From positions 1-42,550 of IMG/VR virus record IMGVR_UViG_3300018875_000010: a stretch of 42,550 nucleotides of DNA. One strand, written 5' to 3'. Both the position numbers and the translations under genes were made by a program. Of the stretch, positions 1 through 42,550 are shown piece after piece (the stretch's first letter is position 1; the number at the start of each line of letters is the position of its first letter). The notes below the pieces were generated by a model that did no database searches, was not told the DNA's origin, and worked only from the letters and a program-made list of their open reading frames with translations. This DNA is from a virus.

Positions 1-479
1 GGGAGAAGCCGGAACACGCCGAGGTCGTCACGCTCCTCATCGACACCGGAATGAGGCCCAAGGAACTCTATAGCTTGGCCCCTCGGGACGTGGACCTGAA
101 GCACGACACCATCACTATCTGGAAGACGAAAACCGACCACCCTCGCACGGTCTACATGACCAAGCGGGTCAAGGACATCGTCTCGCGTCGTGTAAGTGCA
201 GTCACTGCACCGACCGCCAAGCTGTTCCCCTATAACAACGCTTGGCTGCGGCACACATGGGATCGAGCGAAGCTGCAACTTGGGTACGCCCACGACAAGC
301 AGTTCATCCCGTACATCTGCCGCCACACATGCGCGTCCCGGCTGGTTCAGCGCGGGGTGCCGATCAACGTGGTCAAGGAGTGGATGGGTCACAAGACCGT
401 CCAGATGACCATGCGTTACGCCCACCTAGCTCCGCAGAACCTGAAGGCTGCGGCAAGTGTCTTGGAGGCTGCTGAATGA
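1..479 (+). CDS. int: tyrosine integrase, C-terminal part (same gene as 41859..42550; the contig is circular)
   Basis: In-frame continuation of the ORF opening at 41859 through the 127-bp end overlap. Combined length is 1044 nt, 347 aa. Carries the tyrosine-recombinase signature CRHTCASR ... GH ... MRYAHL. Stop TGA at 477-479. Confidence 0.9.
   Translation, partial: EKPEHAEVVTLLIDTGMRPKELYSLAPRDVDLKHDTITIWKTKTDHPRTVYMTKRVKDIVSRRVSAVTAPTAKLFPYNNAWLRHTWDRAKLQLGYAHDKQFIPYICRHTCASRLVQRGVPINVVKEWMGHKTVQMTMRYAHLAPQNLKAAASVLEAAE
196..210. repeat. 15-bp palindrome GTGCAGTCACTGCAC, exact
   Basis: Inside the integrase; reads SAVTAP. Confidence 0.95.
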
Positions 480-1497: not shown

Positions 1498-4047
1498 ATG
1501 GATACCATCCTTGAGACCTCCTCTAATGAAGTCTCCATCTCTCTGTTCGACCGTCAGATTGAGCTTGAAGAGAAGATGCTCGTTGCTGGTAGGGAGAACT
1601 TCTACAAGGCCATTGAACAGGCCAAGGAGCGGGGAGAAGAGGCAGGGACCACCTATGGTCAGCGTATCCTGCGTAAGCTGGTCCTTCCCATGACGAAGGC
1701 CATTGAAGGCTTCGTGTCTGAGGCGTCTTCCGGCAAGGCCGGTCGCCGTCACACGGCTCTGAAGTACATCGACCTCCTTGAACCCGAGGTCGTCTCCTAT
1801 CTCACCCTCAAGACGGTCCTCGATAGCATCACCAAACAGGATACGTTGCAGCGTACCGCTATCCGCATCTCCAATGCGATCCAAGACGAGGTGCGTATGC
1901 TCAAGTTCAAGGAGGCGAACCCGGAGCGTTTCAAGATTACGATGAGCAAGGTCGATGCTGCGACCACTCGTCGCCACAAGCAGCGGGTCGCCCGCATCAT
2001 GGCGAACCGTGCAGGCGTCCACCTCGATTGGCCGGATGCTGACATGATCCACCTCGGAACCAAGCTGGTCGAGCTTCTCCGTGCCTCGACGGGGCTGGTG
2101 GACATCCAGCATCAGACGGTCGGGCCGAAGGACACCCAAATCTTCGTGGTCGCTACGGCCTCCACGATGAAGTGGATCGACAACGCGAACGAGCAAATGG
2201 AAATCCTCGCTCCCGCCTACTATCCGACCATCATCCCGCCGAAGCCTTGGGTCTCCCCTTGGGATGGCGGCTACTGGTCGGGATTGGTGCAGCGACTCCC
2301 CCTAGTGAAGACCCGCAATCAGAACTACCTTGAGGAGCTTTCCAACCGGGACCTCTCTCAGGTTTACGATGCGGTCAACGCCATGCAGGACACCCCTTGG
2401 CAGATCAACAAGGCTGTCTTGCGGGTCCTGAAGGAGGCGTGGGAGACCGGAGCGCGGATCAAGAACATGCCGCCTCGGGAGAACGACGCCCTCCCCTCCA
2501 AGCCCGACAACTTCGACACCAACGAAGCCGCTCGGAAGGAGTGGAAGAAGGCTGCGGCCAGGGTCCATGAGAGGAACGCGAAGCTGAAGTCCAAGCGCAT
2601 CCAGCTTCGCAAGATCATCCAGCTTGCGGATCAGTTCAGCGAGTACGAGGAAATCTTCTTCCCGTATCAGCTTGACTTTCGGGGCCGGGTGTATGCGGTC
2701 CCCATGTTCCTCAACCCGCAGGGACCCGACCACGCTAAGGCCCTACTGACGTTCGCCAATGGGAAGAAGATCGGGGATGGCGTAGCCGCTGGCTGGCTGG
2801 CGATCCACGGTGCCAACACCTACGGCTATGACAAGGTCTCGCTTGAGGACCGGATCGAGTGGATCGAGGAGCGCCGGGACCTGATCGTCGCCGCTGCCGA
2901 GGACCCGCTCGGGGAAGGCTTCGAGTTCTGGACGAAGGCCGACAAGCCGTGGCAGTTCCTCGCGTTCTGCTTCGAGTGGGCTGGCTTCCAGAAGGAAGGC
3001 TTCGACTTCGTGTCCTCCCTTCCCATCGCCCTCGACGGGTCCTGCAACGGGCTTCAGCATTACAGCGCGGCCCTGCGTGATCCGGTGGGAGGCGCTGCGG
3101 TGAACCTCCTCCCGGCGGACAAGCCCAACGACATCTACGGCACGGTCGCAGGCGTTACGTTGCAGCTTGTGCAGGCTTTCGCTTGCCCTAATGGTTCCTC
3201 TATCGGAACCGTTTCGGACAAACAGCTTGCCAAGTGGCGGAAGACTTGGACCGAGCATGGGATTGACGAGGTCGAGATGGCGAACCGCTGGCTGGCCTTC
3301 GGCATCGACCGTAAGGTGACGAAGCGTTCCGTCATGACCCTCCCCTACGGGTCCACTCAATACTCCTGCCGGGAGTTCCTTGAGGAGGCCGTGAGGGACA
3401 AGCTCGATGAGGGCAAGGGCAATGTCTTCGCCAACGGAGACAGCGACGGGGTCTTCAAGGCTACCATGTGGCTTCAGCCGCTGGTCTGGTACGCTATCGG
3501 AGAGGTAGTGAAGGCCGCTCGGATCGGTATGGATTGGCTCAAGGAGTGCGCCCGCTTGGCGGCTGCGGAAGGACTGCCTGTCACTTGGCAGACCCCCGAT
3601 GGCTTCCTTGTGCAGCAGTCCTACCATGACACCAAGCCGCGCCGGATCGACACCCACCTCGACGGTCGCATCCAGTTGGTCATCAGGGAGCAGAAGCCGG
3701 AAATCGACAAGCGGCGTCAGCAGCAGGGCATCGCGCCGAATTGGGTTCACTCGATGGACGCCACCGCTATGCGGAAGTTCATCAACCTCGCCTATGCTAA
3801 CGGCATCGAGCATTTCGCTCTGGTGCATGACAGCTACGGCACGGTGGCTGCGGACGTGGAGATGATGACGGCCTGCCTGAAGAAGGCGTTCGTCCAACTC
3901 TACACCGAGCGTGACCCGCTGGCCGAGTTCCGGGTGGACATTGCGGAACTCCTCTCGGATGCAGCCTTGGCGATGCTGCCCGAGTTGCCCGAGAAGGGCA
4001 CGTTGGATGTCGCTTTGGTGGAGGAGTCCGACTTTTTCTTTGCCTAA
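1498..4047 (+). CDS. single-subunit DNA-directed RNA polymerase (T7 gp1-like)
   Basis: 849 aa. SD AAAGGAGA precedes the ATG. C-terminal region aligns with remembered T7 RNAP (QQGIAPNWVHSMDA, FALVHDSYGT, terminal ESDFFFA versus T7 ESDFAFA). Confidence 0.97.
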   Translation: MDTILETSSNEVSISLFDRQIELEEKMLVAGRENFYKAIEQAKERGEEAGTTYGQRILRKLVLPMTKAIEGFVSEASSGKAGRRHTALKYIDLLEPEVVSYLTLKTVLDSITKQDTLQRTAIRISNAIQDEVRMLKFKEANPERFKITMSKVDAATTRRHKQRVARIMANRAGVHLDWPDADMIHLGTKLVELLRASTGLVDIQHQTVGPKDTQIFVVATASTMKWIDNANEQMEILAPAYYPTIIPPKPWVSPWDGGYWSGLVQRLPLVKTRNQNYLEELSNRDLSQVYDAVNAMQDTPWQINKAVLRVLKEAWETGARIKNMPPRENDALPSKPDNFDTNEAARKEWKKAAARVHERNAKLKSKRIQLRKIIQLADQFSEYEEIFFPYQLDFRGRVYAVPMFLNPQGPDHAKALLTFANGKKIGDGVAAGWLAIHGANTYGYDKVSLEDRIEWIEERRDLIVAAAEDPLGEGFEFWTKADKPWQFLAFCFEWAGFQKEGFDFVSSLPIALDGSCNGLQHYSAALRDPVGGAAVNLLPADKPNDIYGTVAGVTLQLVQAFACPNGSSIGTVSDKQLAKWRKTWTEHGIDEVEMANRWLAFGIDRKVTKRSVMTLPYGSTQYSCREFLEEAVRDKLDEGKGNVFANGDSDGVFKATMWLQPLVWYAIGEVVKAARIGMDWLKECARLAAAEGLPVTWQTPDGFLVQQSYHDTKPRRIDTHLDGRIQLVIREQKPEIDKRRQQQGIAPNWVHSMDATAMRKFINLAYANGIEHFALVHDSYGTVAADVEMMTACLKKAFVQLYTERDPLAEFRVDIAELLSDAALAMLPELPEKGTLDVALVEESDFFFA

Positions 4048-35681: not shown

Positions 35682-35716
35682 CCTCGGCTAGGGTAACACC
35701 TGCCGGGGCTTTTTTG
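35682..35716 (+). terminator. hairpin plus T-run between the terminase subunit genes
   Basis: CCTCGGC (35682-35688) pairs with GCCGGGG (35702-35708, one G-U), followed by CTTTTTTG. Confidence 0.5.
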
Positions 35717-35737
35717 CGTCTCCTACCCCGTTTTCTG

Positions 35738-37441
35738 ATGAAAGAAGACCTCCTTTCTTCCACCCACTTATCCTCGCAGAAGGACCCGATCAGAGGTGAC
35801 TTCCGTAACTTCCTTTACCTCGTCTGGAAGCACCTCAATCTCCCCGATCCGACACCCATCCAGTACGACATTGCGTCGTTCCTACAGCATGGCCCGAAGC
35901 GTTCGATCATCGAGGCGTTCCGTGGTGTCGGCAAATCGTGGGTAACTTCTGCCTACGTCATCTGGCTCCTACTTCGTGACCCCGATCACAAAATCCTTGT
36001 GGTCTCTGCGTCGAAGATCAGGGCCGACGACTTCACCACATTCACGCTGCGGCTCATCAACGAAATGCCGATCCTTCAGCATCTCAAGCCGAGGGCCGAT
36101 CAGCGTTGCTCGAAGGTGTCCTTTGACGTGGGACCCGCGAAGGCGTCTCACTCCCCGAGCGTGAAATCAGTCGGCATCACCGGTCAGCTTGCGGGTTCTC
36201 GCGCTGACACCATCATTGCCGACGACATCGAAATCCCCAACAACTCCCAAACGCAGGCCATGCGGGACAAGCTGTCTGAACTCGTCAAGGAGTTCGACGC
36301 TATCCTCAAGCCAGGTGGTCGCATCGTCTACCTCGGCACCCCGCAGACCGAACAGTCTCTCTACAACCTCCTCCCCGAGCGCGGCTATCAGGTTCGCGTT
36401 TGGCCCGCCCGTATCCCCGACGAGAAGCAACGGATGGTGTATGGCGAGCGTCTCGCTCCGTACATCGAGGAGCTGATCGACAAAGGCTGGAAGGCGGGTT
36501 CCTCTACGGACCCTCGACGGTTCAACGACGACGACCTCTTCGAGCGTGAAGCCTCTTACGGTAAGGCAGGCTTCGCCCTTCAGTTCATGCTCGACACTCG
36601 CCTCTCGGACGCCGACCGGTATCCGCTGAAGGTCTCCGATCTGATCGTCATGAACATCAACCCGGAGATGGCCCCTCTCAAGTTGGTGTGGGCTGCATCC
36701 CCTGAGTTGGTCCTGAACGAGCTACCGAACGTGGCCTTTGCGGGCGACCGCTATCACCGGCCTATGTTCGTGGAGAAGGATTGGGCACCGTTCACCGGGA
36801 CGGTCATGGCTATCGACCCCTCCGGTCGTGGTGGTGACGAGACCGGCTATGCCATCATCAAGTTCCTCCACGGCTACCTGTATGTGGTCGCTGCGGGAGG
36901 TCTCCCCGGTGGCTACGACGATGAGACCCTCCTGAAGCTGGCACAGATGGCGAAGCTCTATGGGGTCAATCATGTGGTCGTTGAGGCGAACTTCGGTGAC
37001 GGTATGTGGACGAAGCTGTTCACCCCTGTCCTCAACCGCGTCCACCCCTGCATGATCGAGGAGGTCAAACACTCCATGCAGAAGGAGAAGCGGATCATCG
37101 ACACCCTGGAACCGGTCATGATGCGGCACAAGCTCATCATCGACCCCAAGGTCATCGAGCAGGACTACAAGACCGTCTCTCAGTACCCACCGGAGAAGCA
37201 GCAACACTACATGCTCATGCACCAGATGACCCGGATCACGAAGGACCGTGGCGCTCTGGTGAAGGACGACCGCCTCGACGCTCTGGCTATCGCTGTCGCC
37301 TACTGGACAGAACAGATGGCGAGGGACGAGGACAAGGCGGCTGCGGCTCATCGGGAGAAGATGCTGCAAGAGGAGCTAGACAAGTTCCTCGCAGGCTTCG
37401 GCAAGAAGGGTCCAGCAAGGAACCTGTGGGTGCGGGTATAA
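35738..37441 (+). CDS. terminase large subunit (T7 gp19-like)
   Basis: FRGVGKSW, SPSVKSVGITGQLAGSRADTIIADDIE, YLGTPQTE, IDPSGRGGDETGY and DDRLDALA align with the remembered T7 gp19. Start taken at MKEDLL. Confidence 0.95.
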   Translation: MKEDLLSSTHLSSQKDPIRGDFRNFLYLVWKHLNLPDPTPIQYDIASFLQHGPKRSIIEAFRGVGKSWVTSAYVIWLLLRDPDHKILVVSASKIRADDFTTFTLRLINEMPILQHLKPRADQRCSKVSFDVGPAKASHSPSVKSVGITGQLAGSRADTIIADDIEIPNNSQTQAMRDKLSELVKEFDAILKPGGRIVYLGTPQTEQSLYNLLPERGYQVRVWPARIPDEKQRMVYGERLAPYIEELIDKGWKAGSSTDPRRFNDDDLFEREASYGKAGFALQFMLDTRLSDADRYPLKVSDLIVMNINPEMAPLKLVWAASPELVLNELPNVAFAGDRYHRPMFVEKDWAPFTGTVMAIDPSGRGGDETGYAIIKFLHGYLYVVAAGGLPGGYDDETLLKLAQMAKLYGVNHVVVEANFGDGMWTKLFTPVLNRVHPCMIEEVKHSMQKEKRIIDTLEPVMMRHKLIIDPKVIEQDYKTVSQYPPEKQQHYMLMHQMTRITKDRGALVKDDRLDALAIAVAYWTEQMARDEDKAAAAHREKMLQEELDKFLAGFGKKGPARNLWVRV

Positions 37442-37547: not shown

Positions 37548-37669
37548 GGGGACCGGAGGTCCCCATCCTATAGGGTATTCAAATAAGTGTACTTAAAGGT
37601 TACATAGGGGTCTCGGGGGTCCTGCTTCGCAGGCCCTCCCTTCGACCCCTACTACCTTGGTTATGCCCT

Positions 37670-37927
37670 ATGAGACTGACCTCCTCACTTCTCCTCCTCC
37701 CCCTCCTCTCCTCCCCGGTCCTTGCCTGCCCCTCCTATGACGTGGGCTGCATCAACCGGGAGAACTCCTATAGGTACTCTCAGCAATCCCAGGAGTGGGC
37801 CTATAGGGAGCAGCAGAAGATGCAGCAGTGGCAAACACAGAACCAGCTTCGCCACATGCAGGACCAGATGACCCACATGAACCACCAATACGGTCATCGT
37901 ATAGGAAGCCCGTACAGGCCCTTCTAG
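37670..37927 (+). CDS. possible Gln-rich lipoprotein (85 aa)
   Basis: Lipobox-like LLLLPLLSSPVLAC. Weak RBS and atypical codons (AGG, ATA). Confidence 0.35.
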   Translation: MRLTSSLLLLPLLSSPVLACPSYDVGCINRENSYRYSQQSQEWAYREQQKMQQWQTQNQLRHMQDQMTHMNHQYGHRIGSPYRPF

Positions 37928-38179
37928 TGGCCTCGGGTACTTCCCTACTCTTGGGGTCTTCTTTGGCCGTCTACGGCCTCCGTAGGCCATCCTACGGGGG
38001 TTTCTTTGGGGACACTTGGGGTTTACTGAGGGGACCTGGATGTTTTGGTGCAAAAATCTGAGAGCCTTCCCCACGCTACGGCGAGGCCCTAGTCCCCCAT
38101 AGCCCCCAAACTGGCCGATCCTCGACCCTTCGGGTCGGCCCAAAGCTGACCTTCGGTCACAACTCCGGTCACAGCCTTC

Positions 38180-38193
38180 GGCTAAGTCATTGA
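38180..38193 (+). repeat. 14-bp direct repeat GGCTAAGTCATTGA, copy 1
   Basis: Identical to 38535-38548. Confidence 0.8.
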
Positions 38194-38282
38194 AATCATT
38201 AGCATTGCAATAGATTAAAGATGGGGTGGACTGCCCTATCGGGGCCTTTGAGGGGACCTTGAGGGGCCTCTATGGGGCATTG

Positions 38283-38297
38283 GTGCAGTCACTGCAT
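38283..38297. repeat. 15-bp palindrome, 14/15
   Basis: In the non-coding end region. Confidence 0.85.
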
Positions 38298-38316
38298 GTT
38301 TCCTGCCTTCGTTTTG

Positions 38317-38332
38317 CATCTATTGTTTTCGA
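38317..38332 (+). repeat. 16-bp direct repeat CATCTATTGTTTTCGA, copy 1
   Basis: Identical to 38505-38520. Confidence 0.8.
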
Positions 38333-38386
38333 CTCCATCCACCTCAGTCCACCTCAAGGGACACCATCGGTCCACCATCGGGACCG

Positions 38387-38401
38387 GTGCAGTGGCTGCA
38401 C
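38387..38401. repeat. 15-bp palindrome, 14/15 (GG centre)
   Basis: In the non-coding end region, flanked by CCG on the left. Confidence 0.85.
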
Positions 38402-38434
38402 CTATAGGCTAGGGCCGTTGGCCCATTGGACACC

Positions 38435-38489
38435 AAATCAGTCCACCAAATCAGCCCGCAAATCAGTCCAAATCAGCTACCCAAATCAG
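38435..38489 (+). repeat. iteron-like array, 5 x AAATCAG spaced 10-13 bp
   Basis: AAATCAG at 38435, 38448, 38460, 38470 and 38483. Three copies extend to CAAATCAGTCCA. Confidence 0.7.
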
Positions 38490-38504
38490 TCCACCAAACG
38501 GGAC

Positions 38505-38520
38505 CATCTATTGTTTTCGA
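38505..38520 (+). repeat. 16-bp direct repeat CATCTATTGTTTTCGA, copy 2
   Basis: Identical to 38317-38332. Confidence 0.8.
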
Positions 38521-38534
38521 GGTGACTGTGACGG

Positions 38535-38548
38535 GGCTAAGTCATTGA
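38535..38548 (+). repeat. 14-bp direct repeat GGCTAAGTCATTGA, copy 2
   Basis: Identical to 38180-38193. Confidence 0.8.
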
Positions 38549-38583
38549 GACACAAGGCAAATCAAAAAAGTTCAAAAAAAGTG

Positions 38584-38623
38584 CAATTAGTCCCTTGACG
38601 GGAACAGTTCCCTCGATTAGCTT
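38584..38623 (+). promoter_or_regulatory. sigma70-type early promoter (copy B of the duplicated cassette) with upstream A-tracts
   Basis: -35 TTGACG (38595-38600), 17-nt spacer, -10 TAGCTT (38618-38623). AAAAAAGTTCAAAAAAA upstream resembles an UP element. Confidence 0.6.
38590..38605. promoter_or_regulatory. GTTCC-N6-GGAAC element (GTCCC TTGACG GGAAC)
   Basis: One mismatch. The N6 spacer is the -35 box of promoter copy B. Confidence 0.55.
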
Positions 38624-38804
38624 AATGACCATCGACGGACGCCAAACGGCCTCCCGAGATGGTCGGAGCGAAGAAAGCCCGAACGCCACATAAGGCCCGC
38701 GAGGGGCACAAGGCTAAGGCTCGATCCTCCTACCGCTCTTTGACAAGTAAATCCGCTCCCTACTGATCCGCATGAAGCGGGATCGAGGCCGAAGCCGAGG
38801 TCAT

Positions 38805-38819
38805 GTGCAGTGACTGCAC
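38805..38819. repeat. 15-bp palindrome, exact (G centre)
   Basis: In the early leader, 65 nt upstream of HH-A. Confidence 0.95.
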
Positions 38820-38883
38820 CATACGAGGCGACAGCAGAGCCAAGTCAAGCGAGGCGAAGCACGGCAAGCGATCCAAGGTAGGG

Positions 38884-38943
38884 CCTTAGCGTAGAGGGAA
38901 TGGTCCCTCCTGAAGAGACCCGCGACGGGTCGAAACGCTAAGG
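38884..38943 (+). ncRNA. hammerhead ribozyme HH-A (type III), predicted cleavage after A38893
   Basis: Stem III CCUUAGCGU/ACGCUAAGG. GUA triplet. Stem I GAGGGA-AUGG-UCCCUC. Core CUGAAGA. Stem II GACCCG-CGA-CGGGUC. GAAA. Confidence 0.8.
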
Positions 38944-38952
38944 AGAAGCATC

Positions 38953-39753
38953 ATGTTCGATACGGTCAACGAAGCCGAAGCCTTCACCAAGGAAGAGACC
39001 AAGTCCGGTTATGACTGGACCGGCGATAACTTCCTGAAGGATTGCGCCGAGACCATCAACGAACGCTATGCCCGAGCCAAGGCTGCGACCCGCAACTCGC
39101 TCGAAGACCTCCGGGTCGTCGGTGAGAGACTGAACGAAGCCAAGGAGTTCTTCAGCGACAAGGGCAAGGGTGCGTTCGGTGGATGGGTCGAAGCCCAAGG
39201 CTTCCCGTTCGATAAGACTTGGCGGGCACGTCTCATGAAGCTGGCTGCTAACTGGGACGCCATCATGGAGGCTGTCGAAGCCTTGCCTGAAGACAAGCGC
39301 AAGTGGTCGGTGGATGGCGTCTTGGCTATCTGGGCCGCTGCGGAAAAGGCCAAGGCACAGCCCGAAGGTGACACCCAAGGTGAAGCCGAAGGTGAAACCG
39401 AAGGCGAACCCAAGGCCAAGGCTAAGAAAGAGACCGAAGCCGAGCGGCTGCGTCGGGAACTGGCTGAAGCTCTCGAACTGATCGAGAAGCTGAAGGCAGA
39501 GAACGAGGCACTCAAGGCCAAGGCTGACGGTGGAGCCAAGGCGAAGGCCAAGGCGAAGCCCGAGGAACCCAAGGCAGGCAACACTGGCACAGTCGATGCC
39601 GTCACCAAGAAGCGGGCCTCTAAGGTGTGGGGTCTCTACACCCGAGGCGCTACCGATGGTGAGAAAGACGCTGCAAAGGCACGTCTCGAAGAGATGGCCG
39701 CGAAGTTCGGTCTGGACTTCGACGCCTTCGTCAAAGCCTGCGGGCTTGCTTAA
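38953..39753 (+). CDS. early protein, DUF3102-like N-terminal domain plus Lys/Ala/Glu-rich coiled coil
   Basis: SD AAGGAG. VGERLNEAKEFF....GAFGGWVEAQGF...TWRARLMKLA resembles DUF3102 as remembered. Confidence 0.65.
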   Translation: MFDTVNEAEAFTKEETKSGYDWTGDNFLKDCAETINERYARAKAATRNSLEDLRVVGERLNEAKEFFSDKGKGAFGGWVEAQGFPFDKTWRARLMKLAANWDAIMEAVEALPEDKRKWSVDGVLAIWAAAEKAKAQPEGDTQGEAEGETEGEPKAKAKKETEAERLRRELAEALELIEKLKAENEALKAKADGGAKAKAKAKPEEPKAGNTGTVDAVTKKRASKVWGLYTRGATDGEKDAAKARLEEMAAKFGLDFDAFVKACGLA

Positions 39754-39765
39754 TTTGCGCGGACG

Positions 39766-39781
39766 GTTCCGTAACAGGAAC
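39766..39781. promoter_or_regulatory. GTTCC-N6-GGAAC element, perfect
   Basis: GTTCC GTAACA GGAAC, after the stop at 39753. The extended hairpin's 3' arm (GTCCCGCG) reaches the HH-B stem III strand GCGU (39788-39791). Confidence 0.6.
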
Positions 39782-39787
39782 TGTCCC

Positions 39788-39839
39788 GCGTCTTGGACTG
39801 ATGCCGTCCAACTGATGAGGCCAAGGCAGGCCGAAACGC
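39788..39839 (+). ncRNA. hammerhead ribozyme HH-B (type III), predicted cleavage after C39792
   Basis: Stem III GCGU/ACGC (4 bp). GUC triplet. Stem I UUGGAC-UGAUGCC-GUCCAA. Core CUGAUGA. Stem II GGCC-AAGGCA-GGCC. GAAA. Confidence 0.8.
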
Positions 39840-39863
39840 AAATCAACGCTAAGGAGAAGTGAC

Positions 39864-40208
39864 ATGCGCGAAGCTCGTATCATCCTCCCTCTCGCTGACA
39901 ACGACGGGAAGCCGGTTGATACCGCTCATGAGTACCTGAAGGGTCGCCTCTGCCGTCTCTTTGGCGGCTTCACGGCTACTCCGGTTATGGGCGGCTGGAT
40001 GGATGACAGCGGGCGGCTCTATGAAGACCGCTCAATCGCCTATGACGTGGCGATGGAAGACACCTACGAGAACGCCCGCAAGGTCGGCTCGATTGCCGAG
40101 ATTGCAGGTCAGATGGCGAAGCAACTCGCCATGTATGTGCGGCTCCCGAATGGGAACGTCCAAATCCTCAACATCGAACCCGCAGCCGAAGCCGCAAAGG
40201 CTGCTTAA
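39864..40208 (+). CDS. early hypothetical protein (114 aa)
   Basis: SD AAGGAG. Clean ORF. Confidence 0.65.
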   Translation: MREARIILPLADNDGKPVDTAHEYLKGRLCRLFGGFTATPVMGGWMDDSGRLYEDRSIAYDVAMEDTYENARKVGSIAEIAGQMAKQLAMYVRLPNGNVQILNIEPAAEAAKAA

Positions 40209-40221
40209 TCGCGCCCCTACG

Positions 40222-40237
40222 GTTCCCCTTCAGGAAC
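40222..40237. promoter_or_regulatory. GTTCC-N6-GGAAC element, perfect
   Basis: ACGGTTCC-CCTTCA-GGAACCGT. The 3' arm overlaps the HH-C stem III strand. Confidence 0.6.
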
Positions 40238-40297
40238 CGTTCGGTCTTCCCCTGAAGCCGGGGAACTGATGAGCCGAAGGCACGGCGAAACCGAACG
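40238..40297 (+). ncRNA. hammerhead ribozyme HH-C (type III), predicted cleavage after C40246
   Basis: Stem III CGUUCGGU/ACCGAACG. GUC triplet. Stem I UUCCCC-UGAAGCC-GGGGAA. Core CUGAUGA. Stem II GCCG-AAGGCA-CGGC. GAAA. Confidence 0.85.
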
Positions 40298-40311
40298 CTA
40301 AGGAGACAGCT

Positions 40312-40656
40312 ATGGAACTGCTTACCGATGCCATCAAGGAAGCCTTGCTTGCCAATGGACGCCGCACGGCCCAAGGCGAGACCATAGACCCGCATCCGGT
40401 CTGTAAACTCTTTACACCGGACGCCGGGGCTACCTGGCTCTTGACGGAATTGGACCCGCTCGATCCCGACATGGCCTTCGGTCTCTGTGACCTTGGGCTA
40501 GGCGAACCCGAGATTGGCTATGTGTCATTGACCGAAATCAAAGCCATCCGGGGACGCCTCGGGCTACCCGTTGAGCGGGACCTCTACTTCAACGCCACCC
40601 TGCCCTTGAGCCTCTACGCTGAGAGGGCACGACTCCAAGGGTGCATTGCAGCCTAA
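40312..40656 (+). CDS. DUF2958-family protein
   Basis: KLFTPDAGATWLLTELDP....AFGLCDLGLGEPEIGYVSLTEI...RGRLGLPVERDLYF is the DUF2958 pattern as remembered. Confidence 0.8.
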   Translation: MELLTDAIKEALLANGRRTAQGETIDPHPVCKLFTPDAGATWLLTELDPLDPDMAFGLCDLGLGEPEIGYVSLTEIKAIRGRLGLPVERDLYFNATLPLSLYAERARLQGCIAA

Positions 40657-40658
40657 AC

Positions 40659-40673
40659 GTGCAGTCACTGCAC
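40659..40673. repeat. 15-bp palindrome, exact
   Basis: 2 nt after the stop of 40312..40656; directly abuts HH-D. Confidence 0.95.
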
Positions 40674-40674
40674 C

Positions 40675-40753
40675 TATACACCGCCTGATGAGACCATAGG
40701 GTCGAAACCTAGAGAGGGTGCTTTAGTTTCCCTCTCGACGGTCGCGGTGGATA
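40675..40753 (+). ncRNA. hammerhead ribozyme HH-D (type I), predicted cleavage after C40743
   Basis: Stem I UAUACACCGC/GCGGUGGAUA (one mismatch). Core CUGAUGA. Stem II GACC-AUAG-GGUC. GAAA. Stem III ACC..GAGAGGG-loop-CCCUCUC..GGU. GUC triplet. Confidence 0.7.
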
Positions 40754-40783
40754 CCCCTTTTGAGCCTACGCCGCACCGATCAA

Positions 40784-40799
40784 ATTCCTGTCAAGGAAC
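40784..40799. promoter_or_regulatory. GTTCC-N6-GGAAC element (ATTCC TGTCAA GGAAC)
   Basis: One mismatch. Upstream of the first MarR-like gene. Confidence 0.45.
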
Positions 40800-40815
40800 A
40801 AACCCATTATTGACT

Positions 40816-40835
40816 TGAACCCAAAAATGGGTTCA
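40816..40835. promoter_or_regulatory. perfect 20-bp palindrome TGAACCCA-AAAA-TGGGTTCA, candidate operator upstream of the first MarR-like gene
   Basis: Abuts a TTGACT hexamer (40810-40815), 26 nt upstream of the ATG at 40861. Confidence 0.5.
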
Positions 40836-40860
40836 TCTCCGTGCGCCAAGGGCAATAAGA

Positions 40861-41175
40861 ATGAGAATCCACCAACAGCTTTGGGACATGGGACAAGCCG
40901 TCCGTGCCGTAGACCCGAAATTCGATGTCACGGCATGGCTGGTCTTTCTTTATGTCGCCAAGAACCCTGGCACAGGTTCAGCGTCCATCGTCAAGGAACT
41001 CGACCTGTCCCAAAGCACGCTCTCTCGGACAGTGATTTACCTGTCCAATCTGCCTAACGGCTTAAACCTGATAGCGATGGAGCCGAACCCGGAGGATCGG
41101 AGACAGCACCGTCTTTATCTGACCGAGAAAGGTGAGGCTTTCCTAAAGTCGCTGCGTAAAATCATTGGGGGCTAA
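40861..41175 (+). CDS. MarR-like winged-helix regulator (104 aa)
   Basis: GTGSASIVKELDLSQSTLSRTVIYL....EPNPEDRRQHRLYLTEKGEAF shows the MarR HTH-plus-wing pattern. Confidence 0.7.
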   Translation: MRIHQQLWDMGQAVRAVDPKFDVTAWLVFLYVAKNPGTGSASIVKELDLSQSTLSRTVIYLSNLPNGLNLIAMEPNPEDRRQHRLYLTEKGEAFLKSLRKIIGG

Positions 41176-41217
41176 GACCCTCAGATCACCTCAGAACTCG
41201 ATGTGTGTGTCCGTTGG

Positions 41218-41232
41218 GTGCAGTGACTGCAC
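41218..41232. repeat. 15-bp palindrome, exact (G centre)
   Basis: Intergenic, after the first MarR-like gene. Confidence 0.95.
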
Positions 41233-41330
41233 CTGACGCGGGAGGTCGCATCCCAAAGCTGCCTCCCACTTGGTCGCCTAACTTGGGACGAAGGATAAAC
41301 CGTACAGAATAAACGGGGACTACAAAAACC

Positions 41331-41702
41331 ATGACAACTAAGTTCGCTAAAGGCTTAACCATTCCGTCTTATGCCGAACTGTTCCTTGAGTGGAACGGTG
41401 ACATGCGCTCTCCGTTTCGCTATACGAAGGACGAGGAAGGTACTGTCGAGGTGCAGTTTGGCCCGATGTATCTGTCCATTGACATCGTCCGTAACAAGAA
41501 ACGACTGACCCTAGAAAGGACATTCAATGGCTATGAAGCCGCTCTCCCGAGCGATCATGTTCGTCGAGGAGTTCCGCAAAGTAGACCCGGAGCTTCCGAT
41601 GCACTCGGCCTTGATCCTCCTTCTGATAGCTCAGAAGCCGGGGATCAACCTCAAGGAACTCGTTCAAGCGACCGGGCTGGTGAAGTCGAGCGTGTCGCGT
41701 AA
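41331..41702 (+). CDS. questionable ORF; only the first ~65 codons look protein-like
   Basis: Overlaps 41527..41859 by 176 nt in another frame. The tail is R/S/G/P-rich, as expected for off-frame reading. Confidence 0.25.
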   Translation: MTTKFAKGLTIPSYAELFLEWNGDMRSPFRYTKDEEGTVEVQFGPMYLSIDIVRNKKRLTLERTFNGYEAALPSDHVRRGVPQSRPGASDALGLDPPSDSSEAGDQPQGTRSSDRAGEVERVA

Positions 41703-41859
41703 TGTTGCCGCCCTCTCAAAAGAGTACGGGGGCAAGGGCCTCATCACCATGACCGAAGACCCTGCGGATCGTCGGAACAAGGTCGTGAAGCTCACTCTTG
41801 AGGGCGAACGTATGGTGCGTTCGCTCCTTCACTACATCGGAGAAGAGGAGACCGTCTAA
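41527..41859 (+). CDS. MarR-like winged-helix regulator (110 aa), paralogue of 40861..41175
   Basis: SD AAAGGA. GINLKELVQATGLVKSSVSRNVAAL....EDPADRRNKVVKLTLEGERM. Stop overlaps the integrase start (TAATG). Confidence 0.7.
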   Translation: MAMKPLSRAIMFVEEFRKVDPELPMHSALILLLIAQKPGINLKELVQATGLVKSSVSRNVAALSKEYGGKGLITMTEDPADRRNKVVKLTLEGERMVRSLLHYIGEEETV

Positions 41860-42550
41860 TGGCAGTAAGGCCAAGAGGCAAAGGCTGGCAAGCCGACATC
41901 ACGGTCAAGGGTCGAAGGTACAGAGAGACCTTCGAGACCGAGGCCGCAGCTAAGGCTTGGGAGCATGAGGCAAGGGCCGCAGTCCTACGCGGGGACCCTT
42001 TACCACGCGCTAACGGTTCCTCTGACGGGACCCCTCCTGAAGGCGAACAGATCGACAGAGGGAACAATACCCTTGGGGCGATCCTCGACCGCACCTTCCA
42101 AAGGTTCTGGAAAGGCGGCGCATCCGAGAAAACCATGCTGATCTACATGAGGCAGTTGGAGGCTTACTTCGGGGCCGCAACCCCGATCCATCAGATCGAC
42201 ACGAACGCCATCGACGGGTTCATCGACTACAACATCGCCAATCACAACTCGAATGGCTCCGTGAACCGGAAGCTGGCTTGTCTGTCCAAGGCGCTCCGCT
42301 ACGCCCGAGACCGAGGGATCATCCAGTTCATCCCGAAGATCGAGCGCAAGAAGGAGGGCATCGGTCGTATCCGCTGGCTGACCCCGGAGGAAGAGAAGGC
42401 TCTGCTAGACCTCCTCCGCTCCTGGGAGAAGCCGGAACACGCCGAGGTCGTCACGCTCCTCATCGACACCGGAATGAGGCCCAAGGAACTCTATAGCTTG
42501 GCCCCTCGGGACGTGGACCTGAAGCACGACACCATCACTATCTGGAAGAC
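41859..42550 (+). CDS. int: tyrosine integrase, N-terminal part (continues at 128..479 after circular closure)
   Basis: ATG at 41859. The frame stays open to the window end and is in phase with 1..479. Confidence 0.9.
   Translation, partial: MAVRPRGKGWQADITVKGRRYRETFETEAAAKAWEHEARAAVLRGDPLPRANGSSDGTPPEGEQIDRGNNTLGAILDRTFQRFWKGGASEKTMLIYMRQLEAYFGAATPIHQIDTNAIDGFIDYNIANHNSNGSVNRKLACLSKALRYARDRGIIQFIPKIERKKEGIGRIRWLTPEEEKALLDLLRSWEKPEHAEVVTLLIDTGMRPKELYSLAPRDVDLKHDTITIWK
42424..42550 (+). repeat. 127-bp terminal overlap, identical to 1-127 (assembly circularisation)
   Basis: Base-by-base identity checked by eye. Confidence 0.95.

Follow-up and report, generated by a model that had tools for sequence, protein, structure and literature searches.

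The window, by which we mean the whole 42,550-nt stretch of DNA analysed, begins and ends with the same 127 nt and is accordingly circular, with a length of 42,423 bp; assemblies of this genome came from three samples. Its genes include those for a T7-type single-subunit RNA polymerase (1498-4047; phrog_414, E = 9e-273), a T7-type terminase (35714-37441), two winged-helix/MarR regulators and an integrase, from which we conclude that it represents a temperate T7-like phage. A DNA search of positions 38500-42550 against GenBank phages returned no match.

Four hammerhead ribozymes lie within 1.9 kb on the coding (+) strand and flank a cassette of three genes: a 266-aa DUF3102-like gene (38953-39753, +), a gene for a 114-aa protein, and a DUF2958 gene (40312-40656, +; Pfam PF11171, E = 3e-42), the last of the cassette, with its TAA stop at 40654-40656. 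A type III hammerhead stands ahead of each gene and runs up to the Shine-Dalgarno sequence (GCUAAGGAGA) of that gene. HH1 (38884-38943, +; core CUGAAGA) ends at the Shine-Dalgarno of the 266-aa gene and has an orthologous copy in loci L165 and L012, described below. HH2 (39788-39839, +) matches Rfam RF00008 with 37.8 bits (E = 1.2e-5), and with 52.7 bits its ortholog at the Azorhizobium caulinodans locus exceeds the gathering score of that model. HH3 (40238-40297, +) matches RF00008 with 42.8 bits (E = 4.2e-7). HH1, HH2 and HH3 were all found by descriptor scan, and HH2 and HH3 by Rfam as well, confirming the three other ribozymes of the initial annotation as type III. Hairpins of the form GGUUCC-N6-GGAAC (39763-84 and 40219-40) immediately precede the predicted cleavage sites of HH2 and HH3 and would become the 3' ends of the respective upstream products.

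Between the DUF2958 stop and the fourth hammerhead, HH4, lies a copy of a 15-bp palindrome, GTGCAGTCACTGCAC (GTGCAGTSACTGCAC), at 40659-40673 (+). A scan of 40656-40861 for terminator-like sites found none. A putative promoter/operator can be read from the sequence at 40810-40838 (+), where TTGACT is followed by the inverted repeat TGAACCCA-AAAA-TGGGTTCA, which overlaps the -35-like hexamer. A consensus promoter scan made no call at 40810-40838, and promoter/operator-like elements are similarly found downstream of the ribozyme in loci L011, L012 and L150.

The first gene past HH4 (40861-41175, +) encodes a winged-helix (wHTH), MarR-like regulator (phrog_9665, transcriptional regulator, E = 1.7e-18; weak Pfam MarR_2). 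This protein has no relatives in IMG/VR, and its sole match in a large protein collection is the same phage from other samples. There follow a MarR-family regulator gene (41527-41859, +; Pfam MarR_2 and MarR; phrog_9665) and a tyrosine integrase of 347 aa (41859-42550 and over the circular junction to 479, +), recognized from the 127-nt overlap and translation across the junction; the integrase gene is called Phage_integrase in L166. The MarR and integrase genes lie 0.1-1.1 kb downstream of the ribozyme cluster.

Structure and support of HH4

HH4 is a type I hammerhead with a conserved extent of 40679-40749 (+ strand, as for all its elements), delimited by its core, its fold, covariation and a family-specific covariance model (R1). 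Its elements run in the order stem I 5' strand, CUGANGA, stem II hairpin, GAAA, stem III hairpin, H17 and stem I 3' strand, with stem I open and stems II and III capped by loops. A type II or type III reading is excluded because the core has no abutting hairpin on its 5' side. A type III ribozyme with the palindrome as stem I was also considered and ruled out, the distance from hairpin to core being 11 nt.

The stem I 5' strand, UAUACACCGC (40675-84), contains the conserved portion CACCGC (40679-40684), whose partner is 40744-40749. It is followed by the core C3-A9, CUGAUGA (40685-40691), which reads CUGANGA in relatives except for a U4C variant in L012/L013, by the covarying stem II hairpin GACC-AUAG-GGUC (40692-40703), and by G12 A13 A14 A15.1 (GAAA, 40704-40707), without variation across relatives. 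Stem III (40707-40742) consists of an ACC/GGU base (40707-09/40740-42), a conserved 2x3 internal loop, UA/GAC (40710-11/40737-39), and a distal hairpin (40712-40736) in which GAGAGGG (40712-18) and CCCUCUC (40730-36) enclose an 11-nt loop. In hammerhead numbering, cleavage is predicted between C17 (40743) and G1.1 (40744), after the GGUC that precedes the cut in every family member. The stem I 3' strand, GCGGUGGAUA (40744-53), begins with the conserved portion GCGGUG (40744-40749), the predicted 5' end of the 3' product.

Every core position (C3 U4 G5 A6 N7 G8 A9, G12 A13 A14, A15.1-U16.1 and H17) agrees with the hammerhead consensus, U16.1 being U40742 and H17 being C40743, and the core-adjacent pairs G40692-C40703, G40744-C40684 and A40707-U40742 are standard. 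The coordinates and sequences given in the initial annotation are exact to the base. RNAfold of 40675-40753 (79 nt) returns the hammerhead three-way junction, with all three stems, as both the minimum free energy (MFE) fold and the centroid; its energy of -30.1 kcal/mol (z = -2.83) is equalled in 0 of 200 shuffles. Stem I had been drawn with ten positions. Its six core-proximal pairs (40679-84 with 40744-49) are backed by relatives; the four outer positions on each side have no such support, and a distal extension UAU/AUA past an A.G mismatch is not kept in relatives. Rapid hammerhead cleavage at low Mg2+ calls for a tertiary contact, or a pseudoknot, between stem I and loop II. A candidate for it, the complementarity of loop II (AUAG) to CUAU (40674-77), is limited to the window, with no equivalent in L011, L012, L025, L033, L035 or L150.

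With both strands scanned, the type I descriptor finds a single site in the window. A lenient descriptor gives 0.017 sites per shuffle in 300 dinucleotide shuffles and a strict one, with the stem lengths of HH4, gives 0 matches in 300; a chance origin of the motif is excluded. At gathering thresholds, Rfam reports only tRNA in the window. With E-value reporting, the best match of HH4 is RF02275 (Hammerhead_HH9, type I) at 17.2 bits (E = 1.8) against a gathering score of 52 bits, in an alignment that spans stem I, core, stem II, GAAACC and GGUC. The low score is attributable to a 28-nt insert in stem III relative to the model, and the miss is a gap in model coverage, not the lack of a defining feature: HH4 has the catalytic core and three-helix junction common to RF00163 (type I), RF02275 (HH9) and RF00008 (type III) of clan CL00010.

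Since the Rfam result is marginal, a family-specific covariance model was required. Model R1, built from 22 relatives' sequences with the window left out, scores 40677-40751 at 70.3 bits (E ~2e-17); its second-best match in the 42.5-kb window has 14.5 bits. In the covariance-model search advised in the initial annotation, HH4 stays below the cut-off with Rfam and is recovered with R1; it is a well-supported instance of type I outside the reach of current Rfam models.

Covariation was examined in the model alignment, with 28 distinct sequences and 15 modelled pairs. Standard pairing is present in 96.3% of cells, and 11 of the 15 pairs (83 cells) show compensatory changes on both sides, in an alignment that was itself fitted to the model. 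The covariation values were reached by 0 of 500 shuffles, and sliding the partner columns by 1-3 positions reduced pairing to 25-38% of cells. Both-side changes occur in 6 of 6 stem I pairs across the 28 distinct relatives. In stem II, where two of three scored pairs covary, G10.1-C11.1 is invariant and the next two pairs covary with 100% of cells paired. The stem III base pairs are invariant in this alignment; the distal helix covaries and ranges in length from 3 to >9 bp, and the internal loop is constant. The conservation of stem III is partly ascertained, since the family was partly gathered with an HH4-derived pattern; that pattern contained neither stems I and II nor the core. The full core, the covarying pairs of stems I and II and a position conserved in relatives together bear out the original type I call and the predicted cut after 40743.

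Relatives, topologies and published clusters

The closest DUF2958 homologs in metagenome assemblies are those of L011 and L012/L013. In L011, whose DUF2958 protein is 91% identical, a type I hammerhead lies ~50 nt past the stop codon, with stem II GGCC-AGAA-GGCC and stem III ACC-UA-GAG-GCAA-CUC-GAU-GGU. In L012/L013 (76% identical), a type I ribozyme with stem II GGUC-AGAA-GACC and a 9-bp distal stem III comes immediately after the same palindrome as in the window, which in L012 also abuts the ribozyme. Relative to CACCGC/GCGGUG in the window, stem I has changed in a compensatory manner to AUCCAC/GUGGAU in L011 and UGCCAC/GUGGCA in L012/L013; stem II has changed likewise from GACC/GGUC to GGCC/GGCC and GGUC/GACC, respectively. 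In L012/L013 all three helices are retained and the core has the U4C change, from which it follows that not every relative preserves catalysis; in the other members examined the core CUGANGA...GAAA...UH is intact. With Rfam models the L011 and L012 copies reach ~22 bits, and the A. caulinodans type I copy is not recovered as type I at all.

The stem III pattern GAAACCTAGAG...GAYGGTC identified 22 sites with a CUGANGA core, stem II and stem I in IMG/VR and metagenome contigs. Their signature, a stem III of the form ACC-UA-helix-GAY-GGU, is common to unrelated GC-rich and AT-rich phage contigs, and the sequences support HH4 as a member of a separate type I lineage. The initial argument against a recent duplication holds as well: HH4 did not arise in this way from a type III copy. 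Hammerhead cores are absent from DUF2958 loci L001-L010 (GTDB genomes, IMG/VR) and L014; judged from these loci, DUF2958 is not tied to ribozymes as such. A literature search found no co-mention of "hammerhead" and "DUF2958".

Seven further syntenic loci (L167-L173) were scanned for all three hammerhead topologies. The syntenic order is terminase, 266-aa gene, small genes, MarR, integrase, tRNA and RNA polymerase, and L150 and L170 keep the order ribozyme, wHTH, MarR, integrase, tRNA and RNA polymerase. HH4 lies, as correctly described at the outset, after the cassette genes and ahead of the wHTH/MarR/integrase module, and this position recurs in L165, L012, L170 and L150. The clusters mix topologies, as in L171 (III, III, I, I, I, II). 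The ribozyme nearest to the lysogeny module is of type I in the window, L165, L012, L170 and L033/L044, type II in L167, L168, L169 and L171, and type III in none of 10 loci, which are interrelated and give a pattern rather than a statistic. As a pattern in these sequences, type III, with which the entire ribozyme would stay attached to the RNA downstream, appears to go unused at the lysogeny-gene boundary in this phage group. A rule that type I is always 3'-most held in the first six loci and was broken by L167-L173. Type I occupies the first position in L170, L172 and L173 and is found at internal positions too; with the last place also open to type II, any link between topology and closing is loose. 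The earlier placement of HH4 at the cassette end stands, and among relatives this place is not reserved for type I.

Bacterial hammerheads are frequently found near integrase genes in prophages, where several type I, II or III ribozymes can flank single genes, as reported in 2011 (PMC3088659). The clusters of Clostridium scindens, A. caulinodans and Agrobacterium tumefaciens cleave (PMC3088659). The window resembles such prophage clusters, having several coding-strand hammerheads within a few kb, flanking genes and near an integrase. Mixed hammerhead clusters beside marR/integrase in prophages have accordingly been known since 2011 (PMC3088659), and the novelty initially seen in the mixed-topology cluster is not sustained, the window being a relative of a tested example. 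What may be new is the conserved stem III internal loop and, downstream, a repeat of the stem I 5' strand with which the 3' product can refold.

The tested relative is the A. caulinodans ORS571 prophage (L035/L165), where two type III ribozymes cleaved during in vitro transcription and the title of the figure on this organism mentions two ribozymes (PMC3088659). Four of the published primers match L035 exactly. The ribozyme-flanked AZC_3573 (262 aa) is 66% identical (E = 3e-111) to the product of 38953-39753 in the window, and the same 15-bp palindrome occurs in both, in the prophage inside primer JP109. The ribozyme order in the prophage is III, III, I, matching the window in ending with type I, and its type I copy belongs to the HH4 lineage (75.3 bits with model R1). 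The window differs in having one extra cassette gene and one extra type III ribozyme, and its last cassette gene encodes DUF2958, whereas that of A. caulinodans encodes a 134-aa coiled-coil protein. The amplicon from JP109 (2738) to JP124 (870) in L035 ends short of the type I copy (388-321), which therefore apparently lies outside the assay as far as the published primers define it. The A. caulinodans cluster is thereby extended by a candidate third ribozyme.

In A. tumefaciens C58, the cluster has a tail gene on one side and marR-integrase on the other, in the order tail gene, ribozyme, the small gene ardA, ribozyme, hypothetical gene, ribozyme, marR and integrase, and it cleaves both in vitro and in E. 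coli (PMC3088659). This order is like that of the window, but the cassette genes differ. Judging from the published mutagenesis primers, in which stem I is closed and stem II open, the three C58 ribozymes are probably type II. Our finding refines the 2011 picture and does not overturn current understanding.

Proposed role of the HH4 cut

Conversion of long phage transcripts into gene-length mRNAs is the role suggested for such clusters, as processing that was never proven (PMC3088659), and a 2019 review states that the purpose of phage and bacterial hammerheads needs more work (PMC6765202). As a complete circular genome of a temperate T7-like phage, the window offers a clean setting for testing that purpose. 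HH4 is probably a functional type I ribozyme that forms the 3' tail of the polycistronic cassette RNA, sets its 3' end and uncouples read-through. We infer cleavage from its homology to tested relatives and its perfect core, and infer the purpose of the cut likewise. The descriptions "early operon" and "closes", drawn from gene order, are plausible but overstated.

In this proposal, HH4 would be transcribed at the end of a three-gene RNA (266-aa, 114-aa and DUF2958 genes). On one short transcript, four ribozymes of two topologies would divide the read-through RNA into pieces of one gene each, just ahead of the lysogeny switch. After type III cleavage, the folded ribozyme would stay on the 5' end of the downstream mRNA, which would start with a 5'-OH. 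With a cut after C40743, the DUF2958 mRNA would instead keep at its 3' end the palindrome hairpin and nearly all of the ribozyme, stems II and III included. This mRNA would then end in a 2',3'-cyclic phosphate, and the RNA downstream would start with a 5'-OH. The cut would fall ~65 nt before the separate, putative promoter/operator of the wHTH-MarR-integrase genes. HH4 would thus define the 3' end of the cassette transcript, where an intrinsic terminator is absent, and uncouple read-through RNA from the lysogeny genes.

An alternative partner, CGCCGCACCGAUC (40769-40781, +), can pair with 40737-40749 over the predicted cleavage site. In a 116- or 161-nt context the MFE structure is this helix and not the hammerhead (-35.6 vs -30.9 kcal/mol for the enforced hammerhead, a difference of 4.7 kcal/mol), and the switch requires nt 40775-40782 to be included. 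Since the competing helix is the stabler one once 40769-40781 has been transcribed, cleavage may be partial or limited by folding kinetics. In the type I family, the stem I 5' strand often recurs downstream, giving a hairpin that starts exactly at +1, the first nucleotide after the cut. Of 27 distinct type I ribozymes, which as family members are not mutually independent, 14 have within 30 nt a Watson-Crick stem of 4 bp or more that begins at +1, vs 3.6 +/- 1.6 expected from shuffles (p < 1/3000). Such a hairpin could act as a timer of cleavage, prevent its reversal or shield the 5' end that it creates.

These structures give rise to the strongest alternative, namely that HH4 serves the downstream RNA. 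Its 5'-OH end would form a hairpin with the stem I copy, making the cut irreversible and protecting read-through RNA into wHTH/MarR/integrase, or the competing helix would act as a timer before cleavage. The excess of +1 hairpins, the GCGG-loop-CCGC found immediately 3' of the cut in independently gathered relatives, and the thermodynamic preference for the competing helix in the window all fit this explanation. The hairpin is missing, however, from the A. caulinodans copy (L165) and the AT-rich members, and the 12-bp window helix is atypical, with a 19-nt loop and one G.U pair, spanning the cleavage site and not starting at +1. The downstream genes, moreover, have a putative promoter of their own. 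We therefore regard a role for the downstream RNA as unlikely compared with one at the end of the cassette transcript.

Loss of activity would make HH4 a dead or decaying relic, kept as a structured 3' UTR or as a protein-binding element, for example through the stem III loop. L012/L013 provide a precedent, with three helices and U4C, and both the conservation of the UA/GAY loop of stem III past known catalytic needs and the availability of a stabler alternative fold are compatible with it. Every core position of HH4, however, matches the consensus for hammerhead acceptance (PMC3088659); the core is intact in all members examined except L012/L013, and neighbouring ribozymes of the homologous prophage cleave efficiently. 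A relic is, on this evidence, very unlikely.

Paired ribozyme ends might also feed an RtcB-type ligase of the host and yield circularised or spliced gene-length RNAs, a possibility raised by Perreault et al. (PMC3088659); HH3 and HH4 would bracket a DUF2958 RNA of ~500 nt with such ends. Yet spliced or circular products were sought in such clusters and none detected (PMC3088659). Type III and type I ends rebuild neither a ribozyme nor an obvious ligation splint, and no ligase gene was seen nearby, making this explanation highly improbable. That the likeness of HH4 to the consensus is an intergenic chance match, as its best Rfam match might suggest, has a negligible probability given the empty shuffles, the R1 score, the conserved position and the compensatory changes.

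The preferred reading, a cut that sets the 3' end of the cassette RNA, can be compared with a synthetic device. RiboJ is an insulator made of a hammerhead and a hairpin directly downstream of the cut; its source is the type III hammerhead of a satellite RNA, modified by engineering, and its place is the 5' end of a gene. Both RiboJ and HH4 stand between transcription units, where they would give defined RNA ends, and both have a hairpin immediately 3' of the cut, but HH4 is natural, type I and located at the 3' end of an operon. A more elaborate version of the preferred reading, which we find doubtful, would have the type I lineage as a purpose-built operon-end module, in which the stem III loop and the refolding copy set, kinetically, the fraction of read-through to the lysogeny genes. 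The loop (ACC-UA...GAY-GGU) would possibly be UA-handle-like or a protein-binding site, the copy would compete before cleavage and form a hairpin at the new 5' end after it, and the read-through would originate from an anti-defence or early cassette. A literature search with the palindrome sequence found nothing. The palindrome occurs in ~28 copies in the window vs ~1 expected, and this genome-wide 15-bp element may belong to the same regulatory layer as HH4.

Topology and stem III of the type I hammerheads

Single clusters of T7-like temperate phages can hold all three hammerhead topologies, as a comparison of the relatives L167-L173, L165 (the Azorhizobium caulinodans ORS571 prophage), L012 and L033/L044 showed. 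The ribozymes are ordered III, III, I, II in L168 and III, III, I, I, I, II in L171, and across all of these loci the one nearest before the MarR/integrase module is of type I or type II, never type III. The positional ortholog of HH4, the type I hammerhead 3' of the DUF2958 gene (window 40679-40749, plus strand), keeps all three helices and carries the core CCGAUGA (U4C) in two relatives (L012:1661-1728 and L013:1595-1662). U4C either weakens or inactivates this copy, or it is a change that the core tolerates.

The 2x3 internal loop of stem III does not vary in the type I lineage of HH4 (ACC-UA-[helix]-GAY-GGU) and is found at window 40707-40742, L165:6975-7042, L170:7468-7537 and L171:6974-7044, as well as in L066, L074, L042 and others; its conservation is partly ascertained by the search pattern with which some of the relatives were collected. 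The helix distal to the loop varies in length and covaries (GAG/CUC, GGC/GCC, ACC/GGU, GCC/GGC), and the GC content of the contigs carrying this stem III ranges from 40% to 69%. The loop presumably resembles a UA-handle with a sheared A.G pair. Arrays of five to eight type I hammerheads, spaced from ~300 nt to >1 kb apart, were observed in two AT-rich metagenome contigs (L074, L096) and in one IMG/VR contig (L030/L039/L042). Stems I and II are nearly identical among the array repeats, the stem III inserts differ, and the repeats appear to separate very small ORFs.

Hairpins at the cleavage products and the region upstream of HH1

The stem I 5' strand recurs a few nucleotides 3' of the cleavage site in the window (within 40744-40781) and in the 3' flanks of the type I ribozymes of L011, L025, L033, L039, L042, L150 and L168-L173. 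The 3' product can therefore start with a hairpin exactly at its own 5' end; 14 of 27 ribozymes show this arrangement, where 3.6 would be expected. The alternative helix in the window comprises 12 bp that extend across the cleavage site, and its stability exceeds that of the ribozyme fold.

Hairpins of 8 bp, ACGGUUCC-N6-GGAACYGU, are located at window 39763-39784 and 40219-40240, closely 5' of the cleavage sites of the type III hammerheads HH2 and HH3, which places them at the 3' end of each upstream product. The hairpin at 40219-40240 shares 3 nt with the start of HH3 stem III, and L011 and L012 have hairpins of a similar kind. No convincing gene was found in window 37600-38880, the stretch from the terminase gene to HH1, the first type III hammerhead. 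This region contains purine-rich GGAGG runs and two degenerate copies (38283 and 38387) of the palindrome described below, and at ~38595-38615 a -35-like TTGACG is followed by the inverted repeat GGGAACAGTTCCC, which together may be a promoter/operator of the ribozyme cassette.

A repeated palindrome in a circular genome

The first 127 nt of the window (1-127) are identical to the last (42424-42550), an overlap left by the assembly of a circular contig. The genome is really 42,423 bp long, with the integrase gene crossing the circular junction. The 15-bp palindrome GTGCAGTSACTGCAC occurs in the window in ~28 copies with at most one mismatch, where ~1 would be expected. Copies at 196, 989, 4086, 5766, 7923, 18168, 22753, 33019, 35186, 37442, 38805, 40659 and 41218 are examples. 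The palindrome is placed directly 3' of stop codons and also within ORFs, and the copy at 196 encodes the integrase residues SAVTAP. This palindrome is also present in the A. caulinodans prophage, within a published primer, as well as in L012 and, in six copies, in L150; a literature search with its sequence returned no match. In the type I hammerhead at L170:4897-4969, the palindrome constitutes the distal hairpin of stem III. The palindrome may be a genome-wide, stoperator-like repressor site for one MarR-type protein.

SymR-like matches in an alphaproteobacterial MAG

Three SymR-like matches were detected on the minus strand of L002, an alphaproteobacterial MAG (452-529, 2009-2085 and 3629-3706), with scores of 40.7-49.5 bits, short of the 61 bits set as gathering score. 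All three run antisense to a conserved 5' UTR and the first three codons behind it, a start codon plus ACT GAT/AAC (Met-Thr-Asp/Asn), a gene start that we take to resemble the beginning of Escherichia coli SymE. The matches may represent repeated type I toxin-antitoxin loci. One copy lies ~275 nt 3' of the DUF2958 gene, and the others are located 0.9 and 2.5 kb upstream.
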